Of a DNA stretch of 39,682 nt, positions 3,232 through 21,233 are shown piece after piece. The stretch comes from an uncultured Woeseiaceae bacterium. GTDB lineage: Bacteria; Pseudomonadota; Gammaproteobacteria; Steroidobacterales; Woeseiaceae. The stretch's first letter is position 1; each line of letters begins with the position of its first letter. The DNA is taken from assembly GCA_945787435.1 (NCBI GenBank), contig CALZHX010000222.1, positions 1-39,682 of the forward strand, read 5' to 3'. The position numbers were made by a program, and so were the translations under genes. The notes under the pieces were generated by a model. That model was given only the letters and a program-made list of their open reading frames with translations, ran no database searches and was not told the DNA's origin.

Positions 3232-3243
3232 CCCCGCAAAGAA

Positions 3244-3273
3244 AAAGGGCGCGCTCCGAAGAGCGCGCCCTTT
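3244..3273. terminator. Bidirectional rho-independent terminator between convergent genes
   Basis: A perfect 13-bp stem, aaagggcgcgctc / gagcgcgcccttt, with loop cgaa. An A-run lies on the left and a T-run on the right, so it can serve both the + gene ending at 3231 and the csp gene ending at 3296. Confidence 0.8.
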
Positions 3274-3295
3274 CACAGACTTGCGTCCGGACTAC

Positions 3296-3502
3296 TTAGA
3301 CTGCGATTACGTCTTCAGCCTGAGGTCCTTTCTGACCGTCGGTGACGGTGAATTCAACTTTCTGGCCTTCGGCGAGTGACTTGAAGCCGTCGCCTGAAAT
3401 AGCACTGAAATGGACGAATACGTCAGGTCCATTTTCCTGCTCGATAAAGCCGAAGCCTTTTGAATCATTGAACCATTTGACGGTTCCGGTAACTTTAGAC
3501 AT
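3296..3502 (-). CDS. Cold-shock protein, CspA family
   Basis: 68 aa: [35 protein letters not shown]... It has the RNP-1 (KGFGFI) and RNP-2 (VFVHF) motifs and the typical length. Confidence 0.95.
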
Positions 3503-3651
3503 TAGTGTCTCCTGTTTAACATGAGTAAGTTTTGCCCTTGCGGGCTGGTTCGCTGAAAGTGATGCTATTACTTATGAAAAGCAGGACGACCTAAGCTAAG
3601 GAACATCGGAACGTGATACATAAATAGTTGGCGTACATTCAAGCTGGGCGC

Positions 3652-3679
3652 AGTATATACCCTGTGGGGGCCGATACAA
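3652..3679 (-). promoter_or_regulatory. Candidate sigma70 promoter of the csp gene, implying a ~140-nt 5' leader
   Basis: On the minus strand: TTGTAT (3679-3674), a 16-nt spacer, then TATACT (3657-3652). Long leaders are typical of cspA-type genes. This is a sequence pattern only. Confidence 0.35.
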
Positions 3680-16483: not shown

Positions 16484-18937
<2,454 letters not shown>

Positions 18938-18941
<4 letters not shown>

Positions 18942-19648
18942 CGAATTGCGACCAGTACAGAGAAGCGATTGCAGCGGACCCGTCATTTGACGGCGCCGCC
19001 GGGCATCTGAGCGAATGCTCGGCCTGCCAGGCGTATCGCAAAGAAATGCTGGCCCTCAACCAGACGATTAGCCGTGCGCTTGCACTTGAAGTACCGCAGC
19101 TCGATGTTCCTGAGTTGCCCGCGATCGAGACAGATAACATTGTGGCATTGCCGACTCGAAAGTGGGCGTCGCCGACCTGGATGGCCATAGCTGCCACGGT
19201 GGTTCTCGCTGCATTCGTCGGGTTTCGCATGGTCGGCAGTGGCGTTGAGTACGCGACGCTCGGCGATGAGTTGCTGGCGCATATCGACCACGAACCTGCA
19301 TCCCTTGCGGTTACCAGCGTTGCCGTAAGCGATGCGCGCCTGACATCCGTCGTGCCGGCCGACATCGCCCGTCTCGACCACAGCTCTGGCCTGATTACTT
19401 ACGCGCAGAGCTGCGTCATCAGAGGGCATTCTGTGCCGCACCTGGTCATCCAGGGTGAGCATGGCCCGGTCACCATTTTGCTGATGCCTGAGGAAATGGT
19501 GTCGGCCCCGCAGACCGTCACGGGCGAGAGCGTCAACGGCGTCATATTGCCAGTGGGCAATGGTAGCATCGCTATTTTTGGTGGGCGCGAAGAGTCACTC
19601 GATCGAATTGAGAAAAAGGTTCTGGAATCTGTGACGTGGAGCACCTAG
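18938..19648 (+). CDS. Transmembrane anti-sigma factor, zinc-finger (ZAS-like) N-terminus, DUF3379-like
   Basis: It is translationally coupled to the ECF sigma gene. It has an H-x3-C-x2-C motif (HLSECSAC) and a single TM segment (WMAIAATVVLAAFVGFRMV), followed by a periplasmic domain of about 135 aa. The DUF3379 assignment is from memory of this architecture. Confidence 0.7.
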
Positions 19649-19710
19649 TGCTCTCGTTACCGATGCATGTGCCCAGCCTGGGCAATAACCCTGAGTAGGA
19701 GAGAGAGAAA

Positions 19711-20073
19711 ATGTCTGAGAAGAAAATTGCGAAACCCATAGCCTTAGCTGTGGGCACGGCGTTGGCCGGATCGTTCGCACTGTCGAGCAGCATTGCCAGC
19801 GCCGATACCGTTGAAAGCCCGTTCGCACTGTCGACACTGACGGCTGGCTACATGCTGGGCGCCGGCGAAGGTGGCTGTGGCGGCGATAAGGAAGGTAAGG
19901 AAGGTAAGGAAGAAACCGAAGGCGCTTGCGGCGAAGGCAGTTGCGGTGGCGATAAGGAAGGCGAAGCCGAAGATAAGGAAGGTGAAGGTTCCTGCGGCGC
20001 TGACAAGGATGCAGAAGCGTCCTGCGGTGGTGACAAGGATGCAGAAGCTTCCTGTGGTGGTGACAAAGGGTAA
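19711..20073 (+). CDS. Secreted acidic Cys-Gly-repeat low-complexity peptide; putative metallophore / RiPP precursor (HvfA- or bufferin-EGKCG-like)
   Basis: The RBS aggaga lies 8 nt before the ATG. The Sec signal peptide ends ..SIASA|D. The head is ESPFALSTLTAGYML. Six (G/A/S)-C-G motifs then sit within a G/E/D/K tract. It has its own strong terminator. Confidence 0.75.
   Translation: MSEKKIAKPIALAVGTALAGSFALSSSIASADTVESPFALSTLTAGYMLGAGEGGCGGDKEGKEGKEETEGACGEGSCGGDKEGEAEDKEGEGSCGADKDAEASCGGDKDAEASCGGDKG
19888..19913 (+). repeat. 9-bp in-frame tandem repeat (aaggaaggt x2.9; KEG-KEG-KEE)
   Basis: Read directly: aaggaaggt aaggaaggt aaggaaga, inside the peptide gene. Confidence 0.85.
20001..20068 (+). 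repeat. 30-bp in-frame tandem repeat (x2.3) encoding DKDAEASCGG units
   Basis: 20001-20030 and 20031-20060 differ at 2 positions. A third partial copy (tgacaaag) follows. Confidence 0.9.
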
Positions 20074-20102
20074 TTAGTCTCTTTCTACACACTTTGCAGA
20101 TT

Positions 20103-20129
20103 AAGCCCGCGCCTTGCGCGGGCTTTTTT
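20103..20129 (+). terminator. Rho-independent terminator of the peptide gene
   Basis: gcccgcgc (20105-20112) pairs with gcgcgggc (20116-20123) and is followed by T6 (20124-20129). Confidence 0.88.
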
Positions 20130-20146
20130 GTGATTTACTTACGCCT

Positions 20147-20737
20147 ATGGCAAAACCTGTGACACGCTGCAAGTGGGCCGAAGGCGTCAGCCTCGACTAT
20201 ATCGAGTATCACGATACGGAGTGGGGCGTTCCTGCCCATGACGACCGTGTACAGTTCGAATTTCTGCTCCTCGAGGGTGCACAGGCGGGTCTCAGCTGGT
20301 CGACGATACTCAACAAGCGTGAAGGCTACCGCAAGGCGTTCGCCGATTTTGACCCGGTAAAGGTCGCCCGCTTTACCGACAAGCGCGTCGAAAAATTGTT
20401 GCTGAATCCAGGCATCGTGCGCAATCGCCTCAAGGTGAACTCCGCCGTAACAAATGCGAAAGCGTTTCTTGCCGTGCAAAAGGAGTTTGGCAGTTTCAGC
20501 AAATACATCTGGGAATTTGTGAGCGGCAAGCCCATCCAGAACCGCTTCAAGAAAGACGCCGACATACCAGCCACGTCGGCGGAGTCCGACGCGCTCAGCA
20601 AGGACCTGAAGAAACGTGGTTTCAAGTTTGTTGGCAGCACGATCATCTACGCCCACATGCAGGCGACCGGCCTCGTTAACGATCACGTCGTCGGGTGCTT
20701 TCGCCATAAGCCCTGCCAGCAACTTGCAAAAAACTGA
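20147..20737 (+). CDS. tag: DNA-3-methyladenine glycosylase I
   Basis: It starts MAKPVTRCKWAEG and has YHDTEWGVPAHDDRVQFEFLLLEGAQAGLSWSTIL and ...YAHMQATGLVNDH. The track ORF start at 20114 lies inside the upstream terminator, so I prefer the ATG at 20147. Confidence 0.92.
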   Translation: MAKPVTRCKWAEGVSLDYIEYHDTEWGVPAHDDRVQFEFLLLEGAQAGLSWSTILNKREGYRKAFADFDPVKVARFTDKRVEKLLLNPGIVRNRLKVNSAVTNAKAFLAVQKEFGSFSKYIWEFVSGKPIQNRFKKDADIPATSAESDALSKDLKKRGFKFVGSTIIYAHMQATGLVNDHVVGCFRHKPCQQLAKN

Positions 20738-20792: not shown

Positions 20793-21233
20793 ATGTCAGA
20801 CATTGTCCTGAACGGCAAGCCAACGACGACCTTCTGGATCGTCGGCGGTGCCGCACTTGTTTGGAACCTGTTCGGCCTGGTGTTCTACATCGGTCATGTA
20901 ACGATCTCACCCGAAGCCCTGGCAGCGATGCCGCAGTTACAGCAGGACTTCTTCGCCGGGACACCAACCTGGGCGACAGCTGCGTTTGCGCTGGGCGTTA
21001 ATGCAGGGGTTCTTGGTAGCCTGTTCCTGCTCTTGCGAAAGGCCTGGGCCGTACCAATGTTCGTACTGTCCCTGGTGTCCGTGATCGTTCAGGACATTGA
21101 TGCCTTCGTACTTCGCGACGGCTTCAGCGTTGTTGGTATCAACGGCATCATAATTCCATCGATGGTCGTCGTGATTGCAATCGCCTTGCTGTTCTATGCT
21201 CGCGATACCAAAGAAAAAGGCTGGCTGGCCTAA
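20793..21233 (+). CDS. Hypothetical membrane protein (about 4 TM segments)
   Basis: 146 aa and hydrophobic, with no recognised motif. It overlaps the convergent protease stop by 4 nt. Confidence 0.5.
   Translation: MSDIVLNGKPTTTFWIVGGAALVWNLFGLVFYIGHVTISPEALAAMPQLQQDFFAGTPTWATAAFALGVNAGVLGSLFLLLRKAWAVPMFVLSLVSVIVQDIDAFVLRDGFSVVGINGIIIPSMVVVIAIALLFYARDTKEKGWLA

Follow-up and report, generated by a model that had tools for sequence, protein, structure and literature searches.

HvfA of Haemophilus influenzae carries a Sec signal peptide, which is cleaved, ahead of its AEGKCGEGKCG repeats, and the MNIO enzyme HvfB, together with HvfC, introduces one -4 Da modification per repeat Cys to give a product which binds Cu(I) (PMC11252979). 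This modification was later reassigned to a 5-thiooxazole, under the class name captophorins (bioRxiv 10.1101/2025.11.18.689057). The corresponding Buf_EGKCG, or oxazolin, family of ribosomally made, post-translationally modified peptides (RiPPs) has ~2000 members, mostly accompanied by MNIO, DUF2063 and DoxX genes (PMC12452194). Here we describe a gene for a predicted precursor of this kind from an uncultured Woeseiaceae bacterium, on a stretch of DNA of 39,682 nt (contig CALZHX010000222.1, assembly GCA_945787435.1), which is called the window hereafter. Woeseiaceae rank with the most abundant bacteria in marine sediments. Both the peptide family and its chemistry have been described in the literature of 2024-2026, and the gene as such is no discovery. 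The unusual part is its context: the precursor is the only visible cargo of an operon that encodes an extracytoplasmic function (ECF) sigma factor and a DUF3379 protein, is uncoupled from its maturase, and occurs in this setting in ~75 Woeseiaceae species and in a sister lineage.

The enzymes FonBC require at least two repeats, tolerate Ala, Thr or Arg before the Cys and accept only Gly or Ala after it, and all single-Ala variants preceding the core of FonA are tolerated (bioRxiv 10.1101/2025.11.18.689057). Modification of HvfA is still complete when the signal peptide and N-region are lacking, and unmodified HvfA from E. coli carries disulfides, detected as -8 Da (PMC11252979). The arrangement of precursor and enzyme genes also varies, in that 'sizeable proportions' of Buf1 and Buf2 precursors are unlinked to MNIO genes, stand-alone precursor genes have been charted for all three families, Buf_EGKCG included, and sigma/NrsF genes occur in some bufferin clusters (PMC12452194). 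Below, labels of the form L### denote homologous loci and P#### homologous proteins.

The precursor and its family

The precursor (Table 1) begins with MSEKKIAKP as its basic n-region, continues with a hydrophobic run of 19 residues and then has a cleavage-type site, A-S-A before D, all identified by inspection. A preliminary description, made from the sequence alone, had assigned residues 1-31 to a Sec signal peptide, which is borne out both by this layout and by conservation in 30 orthologues, where K8, P9, A13, V14, G15, F22, A23 and A31 are invariant. Signal peptides of this family have been found experimentally to be cleaved or used, in HvfA (PMC11252979) and in bufferins (PMC12452194). 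A lipoprotein was considered and rejected, as there is no lipobox Cys. The signal peptide gives way to a conserved head, whose residues 33-49 are TVESPFALSTLTAGYML; across the same 30 orthologues P37, F38 and G46 never vary, and at least 90% keep Y47. The tract from residue 50 to 120 (composition G22 E14 A8 D8 K8 C6 S4 T1) holds, in order, the units EGGCG, EGACG, EGSCG, EGSCG, EASCG and EASCG, the last three of which correspond to a 30-bp DNA tandem repeat at 19984-20066 (2.8 copies, 88% identity). As the preliminary description had it, every Cys is followed by Gly and preceded by a small residue, namely G, A, S, S, S and S at the six sites. Its account of a pure G/E/D/K tract with six (G/A/S)-C-G motifs holds for the motifs but not for the purity, the tract being G/E/D/K-rich with A and S.

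Among 70 distinct orthologues, Cys is followed by Gly at all 602 sites, and preceded by S at 422, K at 110, A at 33 and T at 18, with N, G, E, H and Q also occurring. Repeat number varies widely in this set (4-16 Cys, 97-226 aa), and locus L012 (4799-5368) contains a far longer EGSCGGDKEA array, partly N-masked. Variation of this extent indicates an array that probably expands and contracts rapidly.

The precursor open reading frame (ORF) is a genuine gene, because it has 1582 database homologues at E≤1e-3 (the family forms 1163 clusters at 50% identity), varies by codon position in the manner of a coding sequence (0.18 / 0.09 / 0.48 at positions 1/2/3 in the 70 distinct orthologues, the third varying most), and retains its ribosome-binding site, signal peptide, head and synteny across loci. 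In this respect the earlier argument that the ORF is no low-complexity artefact is upheld by evidence beyond the good ribosome-binding site and dedicated terminator on which it had drawn, both of which are indeed present (Table 1). The sequence (G)TAGGAG(A) is near-invariant in orthologous anti-sigma/precursor spacers, 8 of the 10 bp of the terminator stem (20103-20125) are G-C, and sister-lineage precursors likewise have equivalent terminators downstream.

Its relatives place the precursor in the known HvfA / Buf_EGKCG (oxazolin, captophorin) family, of which it is a divergent member. Pfam gave no family for it at E≤0.1, and its sole NCBIfam hit, to NF050137 (KCGExKCG_twice, described as HvfA family oxazolone/thioamide-modified RiPP metallophore), covers residues 70-98 at 15.2 bits (E=0.012), below the cutoff of 19.5. 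Its orthologues score better: NF050137 matches 28 of the 30 at E≤1e-3, the best at 1.8e-18, and these align strongly to the window protein (E 1e-36 to 1e-50), so that homology to HvfA follows by transitivity; seven of the 30 match NF050188, and one orthologue, P0083, carries the NCBI name HvfA family. A look-up of the exact window protein in public assemblies returned no entry. A family profile search recovers canonical EGKCG proteins with an identical head motif, and 111 of a diverse set of 149 family representatives have PFxxxxLxxGY, as do the MNIO-linked relatives. The commonest Cys contexts in those representatives are EGKCG (453), EGSCG (154) and DGKCG (35). Against the two or more E-G-x-C-G repeats of such a precursor, the window protein has six; Lys stands before Cys at none of these, and at 110 of the 602 orthologous sites. 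The placement among signal-peptide-bearing EGKCG precursors that the preliminary description had proposed is therefore sustained at the level of homology, by the orthologue matches, the shared head and the MNIO-linked relatives, while the proposed check against HvfA and BufA models came out positive for the orthologues, below the cutoff for the window protein itself, and without any DUF2282 domain.

The MNIO-linked relatives also bear on the idea that the SCGGDK unit might define a new sequence subclass. In six loci outside the Woeseiaceae (L074, L082, L083, L085, L087 and L088, from a Lysobacterales metagenome-assembled genome (MAG), two Lysobacter genomes, a Pseudomonadales MAG and two unclassified gammaproteobacteria), the precursor is directly followed by genes for an MNIO (PF05114, E=8e-104) and for a DUF2063 protein (PF09836 with NGO1945_C, PF22106). 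The precursors of L074, L085, L087 and L088 contain EGSCGGDK units as in the window protein, and EGSCG is already a 5-mer motif class in the captophorin dataset. Because MNIO-linked precursors of Lysobacterales, Lysobacter and Pseudomonadales use the same unit and the motif class is already listed, the notion of a new subclass does not hold.

Membership in Buf1 (DUF2282) or Buf2 was rejected, there being neither a DUF2282 nor a 6/12-Cys bufferin domain, and no Pfam hit at the threshold given above. One family member, P0121 (196 aa, with EGSCG repeats), closes with a hydrophobic stretch and then RRRIKRS, which together resemble a sorting or anchor signal; this C-terminus suggests that some members may be tethered to the cell surface.

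The cassette and its regulators

The precursor gene comes third in a cassette of fixed order (ECF sigma factor, DUF3379 protein, precursor and terminator), which is transcribed divergently from hemB. This cassette recurs in ~75 species-level genomes, nearly all of them labelled Woeseiaceae, Woeseia or unclassified Gammaproteobacteria, which agrees with the assignment of the window to the Woeseiaceae, and is found again in a sister gammaproteobacterial lineage. In the latter, hemB is 64% identical, the cassette and terminator are the same, and among the flanking genes only aroE and hemB are common to both lineages. A search seeded with the sister-lineage locus L081 returned only 13 relatives, and every sister-lineage locus examined has the same cassette. 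The anti-sigma gene starts within the sigma stop (ATGA, an overlap of 4 nt), and the anti-sigma-to-precursor spacer has a median length of 62 nt. Downstream of the terminator lies tag, an unrelated gene; unrelated accessory genes are inserted between precursor and tag in some loci.

The sigma factor has sigma70 regions 2 and 4 only, with the overlapping anti-sigma gene immediately downstream, as expected of an ECF module, and scores 195 bits against PRK12517 (cutoff 197). Its sequence is 62-88% identical in syntenic Woeseiaceae loci and 58% identical in L081; identity of the anti-sigma factor is only 39-72% across Woeseiaceae loci. The N-terminal part of the DUF3379 protein contains the motif HxxxCxxC (H23-x3-C27-x2-C30) in 69 of 70 orthologues, with C27 and C30 invariant across the two lineages, and this is predicted to be the zinc-binding motif of a zinc-binding anti-sigma (ZAS) domain. 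One transmembrane segment was found by hydrophobicity scan at approximately residues 81-99. The periplasmic domain beyond it has four residues that do not vary between the lineages (H115, E119, C159 and H168) and two that are nearly invariant (H118 and H155), a conserved His/Glu/Cys set which suggests a periplasmic metal site. An AlphaFold2 model of this domain has predicted local distance difference test values mostly of ~80-90, and a fold search of the PDB with the model gave nothing at E≤0.001, the best match being a weak, partial RseB-like one at E≥0.03.

Sigma/DUF3379 pairs also occur outside these lineages, in Pseudoalteromonas piscicida (L098, 6474-7708) and Aeromonas caviae (L099, 6451-7693), where the N-terminal HxxxCxxC cysteines are lacking, the neighbours are unrelated and no such peptide adjoins. 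A general tie between DUF3379 and precursors of this type was rejected on the grounds of these other neighbours. Comparison of the sequences points to both the ZAS motif and the peptide cargo as lineage-specific additions to the DUF3379 family. In Aeromonas, the ORFs after DUF3379 look like outer-membrane proteins, as judged by eye from their N-termini and unconfirmed by hidden Markov model (HMM). DUF3379 is unmentioned in two MNIO surveys and their supplements, and a literature search met the term in a single, unrelated paper.

Two elements upstream of the sigma gene (Table 1) are better conserved than the adjacent anti-sigma protein. The first, a block of 41 nt, is at least 80% identical in each column of an alignment of 71 distinct orthologous intergenic regions, has no Rfam match and no second copy within the window, and may act as a regulator site, as a promoter or as the hemB leader. 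The second comprises GTAATAA and GGGTCA boxes, each at least 80% conserved in 71 loci, in a motif which extends as GTAATAA-N14-GGGTCA(T)CTCGT to the sigma ATG (18405-18437). The spaced pair of boxes occurs once in the window, against 0.02 occurrences expected by chance, and no sigma-70-like promoter was found in 18200-20250. This motif is a candidate autoregulated ECF promoter, from which a near-leaderless mRNA might be made.

A third element is the small stem-loop in the anti-sigma/precursor spacer. In ~60 of 70 distinct loci this spacer contains a GCCC-N3-8-GGGC hairpin, placed 36-46 nt upstream of the ATG, and about a dozen loci have two copies. Its loop length is variable, and a few flanking pairs, outer and inner, show compensatory changes (T-A/C-G; G-C/T-A/A-T). 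The single-sequence fold has a z-score of only -1.3, and RNAalifold returned no pairs from a MAFFT alignment of the spacer because the variable loops were misaligned. Rfam searches of the intergenic elements gave only sub-threshold, terminator-driven matches. The stem-loop is a candidate intercistronic element for RNA processing or stability, which could let the precursor accumulate above its regulators.

Table 1. Positions in the window of the precursor gene, its regulators and associated signals
Feature	Position	Strand	Details
41-nt conserved block ATTTTCCCTGTATTTAGGTAGGGTTTCCACGCCTGATTCAC	18346..18386		divergent hemB/sigma intergenic region
Candidate ECF-type promoter GTAATAA-N14-GGGTCA	18405..18431	+	ends 6 nt before sigma ATG
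ECF-type sigma-70 family sigma factor, 167 aa	18438..18941	+	TIGR02937, 78.1 bits (cutoff 42.9)
DUF3379 membrane anti-sigma factor, 236 aa	18938..19648	+	Pfam PF11859, E=2.3e-27
Small G+C-rich stem-loop TGCCC-AGCCT-GGGCA	19670..19684	+	anti-sigma/precursor spacer, ~40 nt before ATG, no T-run
Shine-Dalgarno AGGAG	19697..19701	+	9 nt upstream of precursor ATG
Precursor ORF	19711..20073	+	120 aa; translation identical to that in the preliminary description
Sec-type signal peptide, precursor residues 1-31	19711..19803	+	n-region, h-region, A-S-A/D site; by inspection
Conserved head D-TVESPFALSTLTAGYML, precursor residues 32-49	19804..19857	+	family motif [SN]PFxxxxLxxGY
Core, precursor residues 50-120 and stop	19858..20073	+	six E-(G/A)-x-C-G units, acidic/Lys spacers
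Intrinsic terminator closing the sigma/anti-sigma/precursor unit	20103..20132	+	10-bp stem and T-run

Other features of the window

The neighbours of the cassette in the window are housekeeping or otherwise unrelated genes, among them hemB, aroE, gor, tag and topA (Pfam on the main ORFs). The mechanically called hemB ORF (17309..18460, minus strand, 383 aa) is over-extended, and its apparent overlap with the sigma gene is not real, because the conserved hemB start is the ATG at 18316, which gives a protein of 335 aa (17309-18316), as in homologues. Two genes after the precursor, at 20793-21233 on the plus strand, lies an ORF for a 146-aa protein with probably four transmembrane segments, which has no Pfam or NCBIfam hit and is not DoxX by HMM. 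A clear homologue stands in the sister lineage, also two genes after the precursor, on the opposite strand and in different surroundings (L089, 7866-8294, minus strand); this membrane protein could represent remnant synteny or a functional partner. Elsewhere, an Rfam match to the cspA thermoregulator (3242-3665, minus strand; 81.6 bits against a gathering threshold of 78, E=4e-19) would imply a cold-shock protein gene with a thermosensor in its 5' untranslated region.

Proposed role and alternatives

Our best reading, which we regard as narrowly probable, is that the gene encodes a stress-induced periplasmic copper-buffering peptide that is matured in trans. The periplasmic and/or ZAS domain of the DUF3379 protein would sense a signal in the envelope, for which copper, another thiophilic metal or oxidative stress is the likeliest candidate, and the released sigma factor would then transcribe its own operon, the precursor included. 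The stem-loop before the precursor and the strong terminator after it may yield a stable short mRNA, and with it a high output of peptide relative to the regulators. In the cytoplasm, the Cys of each E-G-x-C-G unit would be converted to 5-thiooxazole by an MNIO/DUF2063 pair, similar to HvfBC or FonBC and encoded elsewhere; Sec export and removal of the signal peptide would follow, leaving the mature peptide to buffer Cu(I) in the periplasm.

Several results weigh against this scheme, of which the trans-maturation step is the weakest link, no maturase gene having been found. MNIO, DUF2063 and DoxX were detected neither in the window, by Pfam on the main ORFs and by tblastn of its whole length with four MNIO and four DUF2063 proteins of HvfB/HvfC-like type, nor within up to ±10 kb of ~80 orthologous loci, as far as contigs extend. 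Conversely, the precursor stands immediately upstream in all MNIO loci examined (L074, L082, L083, L085, L087, L088, L092-L097 and L100-L106), in which HvfC lies downstream, DoxX comes next in most marine loci, and CopA or CopZ is found in several. A profile search built on four MNIOs gave no match named Woeseiaceae among the best 120 of at least 8000, and four MNIO contigs (whole-genome shotgun projects CDPJYA, JAZHCG, JAZGGH and JARRMW) match none of the cassette assemblies. Woeseiales is absent from the 30 gammaproteobacterial orders with MNIO-PME1 clusters in Table S3 of the captophorin preprint (bioRxiv 10.1101/2025.11.18.689057), which counts only clusters with an adjacent precursor. 'Woeseia' is likewise absent from the supplements of two MNIO surveys, and a literature search returned nothing that joins Woeseia with MNIO or bufferins. 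To these points must be added the sub-cutoff score of the window protein against the HvfA model, and the inferred nature of the promoter, of the inducer and of the function given to the stem-loop.

The same absences argue for a different explanation, in which the lineage has no HvfB/HvfC-type maturase and the exported peptide, descended from an MNIO-modified ancestor, works unmodified. It would then serve as an ECF-induced periplasmic sponge for Cu, Zn or Cd, rich in thiol/thiolate and carboxylate groups, or as a sacrificial redox buffer. The want of MNIO, DUF2063 and DoxX genes near any of ~80 cassettes in two lineages, the constant adjacency of precursor and enzyme in MNIO loci elsewhere, the outcome of the profile search and the gap in Table S3 all speak in its favour, as does the self-contained nature of a cassette with its own terminator. 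We nevertheless consider this explanation doubtful. The strict retention of C-G at 602 of 602 sites matches the need of the enzymes for a small residue after Cys, and would be unnecessary for plain thiolate chelation; combined with the drift at the preceding position, it fits the measured enzyme tolerance and so would favour maturation in trans. Furthermore, the periplasm would probably oxidise Cys left unmodified, which would then bind metal poorly, by analogy with the disulfides of unmodified HvfA (PMC11252979). The absence of a maturase also extends over the cassette neighbourhoods searched, and not over whole genomes.

Maturation in trans also draws on precedent, in that bufferin clusters may contain sigma and anti-sigma genes, Buf1 and Buf2 precursors may be unlinked to MNIO genes, and stand-alone precursor genes have been charted for Buf_EGKCG too (PMC12452194). 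The six-unit core appears compatible with the measured tolerance of FonBC, although its actual modification is a prediction. A wider scenario holds that Woeseiaceae and the sister lineage lost MNIO and DUF2063 entirely and long kept an HvfA-type precursor as sole cargo of the ECF sigma/DUF3379 module, with Cys either unmodified or modified by another enzyme, and with the peptide buffering metals or redox state in the periplasm or being the ligand that the anti-sigma factor reads. This we count as possible, though less likely than not.

The head of the precursor poses a separate problem. It had been proposed as a possible recognition element for the modifying enzymes, which is at odds with the full modification of HvfA devoid of signal peptide and N-region, and with the tolerance of FonA to single-Ala variants before the core. 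Because it is dispensable for modification in these two systems, its conservation across the family needs another explanation. One such explanation is that the peptide is part of the signalling device, instead of or besides being its output: a metal- or redox-sensitive ligand whose head docks on the periplasmic domain of DUF3379 and modulates the anti-sigma factor. CnrX, in the CnrYXH system, is an analogue. The co-inheritance of the three genes across two lineages while the outer flanks change would fit such a role, as would the near-invariance of the head beside an anti-sigma factor of only 39-72% identity. The Pseudoalteromonas and Aeromonas pairs, which lack both the peptide and the ZAS cysteines, likewise make the pairing of peptide and DUF3379 lineage-specific. 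Even so, the docking is conjectural, and the same head occurs in MNIO-linked precursors with no DUF3379 neighbour, so that it did not evolve for DUF3379 binding; a signalling role is, on balance, quite unlikely.

It is very unlikely, too, that an unrecognised enzyme of another kind, or an MNIO partner system too divergent for the queries used, acts on the Cys. Partner proteins may escape the DUF2063 signature, as 'PME-type 2' (PMC12452194), and the queries used here were confined to HvfB/HvfC-like proteins and Pfam. However, the cassette has no conserved candidate gene beside it, its surroundings being the housekeeping genes listed above, and the 146-aa membrane protein found near it in both lineages has no family hit. 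Finally, a spurious ORF produced by the GC-rich repeat has negligible probability and was rejected: three further ORFs do overlie the repeat, in other frames or on the opposite strand, but these are by-products of the repeat, and the conservation evidence (third-position variation, ribosome-binding site, signal peptide, head, homologues and synteny) excludes it.

Implications

If a maturase acts in trans on the Woeseiaceae precursor, then the cassette would be a natural system for studying how precursor supply is regulated apart from the enzymes, and which signal is read by a DUF3379 anti-sigma factor. Should there be no maturase, peptides with Cys-Gly repeats would be functional independently of thiooxazole formation, and if the peptide is unmodified because its maturase was lost, a RiPP precursor family would persist without RiPP chemistry. 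In both cases the cassette speaks for an envelope stress response, conserved and probably related to copper, in a dominant group of sediment bacteria.

Comparison with known systems

The nearest counterparts of the precursor are HvfA of H. influenzae, FonA (fontiphorin) and NgoA (gonophorin), with which it shares a Sec signal peptide followed by E-G-x-C-G repeats. Those precursors come with HvfBC-type MNIO and DUF2063 partners, whereas the one described here has no adjacent MNIO, DUF2063 or DoxX gene and lies inside an ECF sigma/DUF3379 operon. It differs from EGKCG precursors in having S, A or G, and never K, before Cys. HvfA of H. influenzae has a different N-region with a disulfide; the [SN]PFxxxxLxxGY head is found in most family members.

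Homologous precursors with the same head, and some with EGSCG units, occupy canonical gammaproteobacterial hvfABC-doxX loci after rnf-nth-DUF1841. There the precursor is followed by MNIO, HvfC and usually DoxX, with CopA/CopZ in several, none of which is found here. Marine gammaproteobacterial metagenome contigs (L092-L097 and L100-L102) have precursor-MNIO-HvfC(-DoxX) at a fixed place after rnfCDGE-nth-DUF1841; several of these clusters continue with CopA and a CopZ-like HMA protein, and some of their precursors contain EF-hand inserts.

Bufferins, made from Buf1 (DUF2282) or Buf2 by BufBC, resemble the present system in having a signal-peptide-bearing RiPP precursor, a logic of periplasmic copper buffering, sigma/anti-sigma genes in some clusters and a sizeable share of precursors unlinked to MNIO (PMC12452194). 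They are folded 4-Cys or 6/12-Cys domains, in contrast to the repeat architecture described here, which has no DUF2282, and some of their clusters are under ECF control of the SigF/NrsF type, in contrast to the DUF3379 (ZAS type) anti-sigma factor of the cassette.

The regulatory pair, for its part, is comparable with known pairs of ECF sigma and ZAS anti-sigma factors, such as RsrA-SigR and ChrR-RpoE. It shares with them the HxxxCxxC motif in the N-terminal anti-sigma domain, and its anti-sigma gene is translationally coupled to that of the sigma factor. It departs from the RsrA/ChrR type in that the anti-sigma factor is a membrane-anchored DUF3379 protein, the periplasmic domain of which is only weakly RseB-like.

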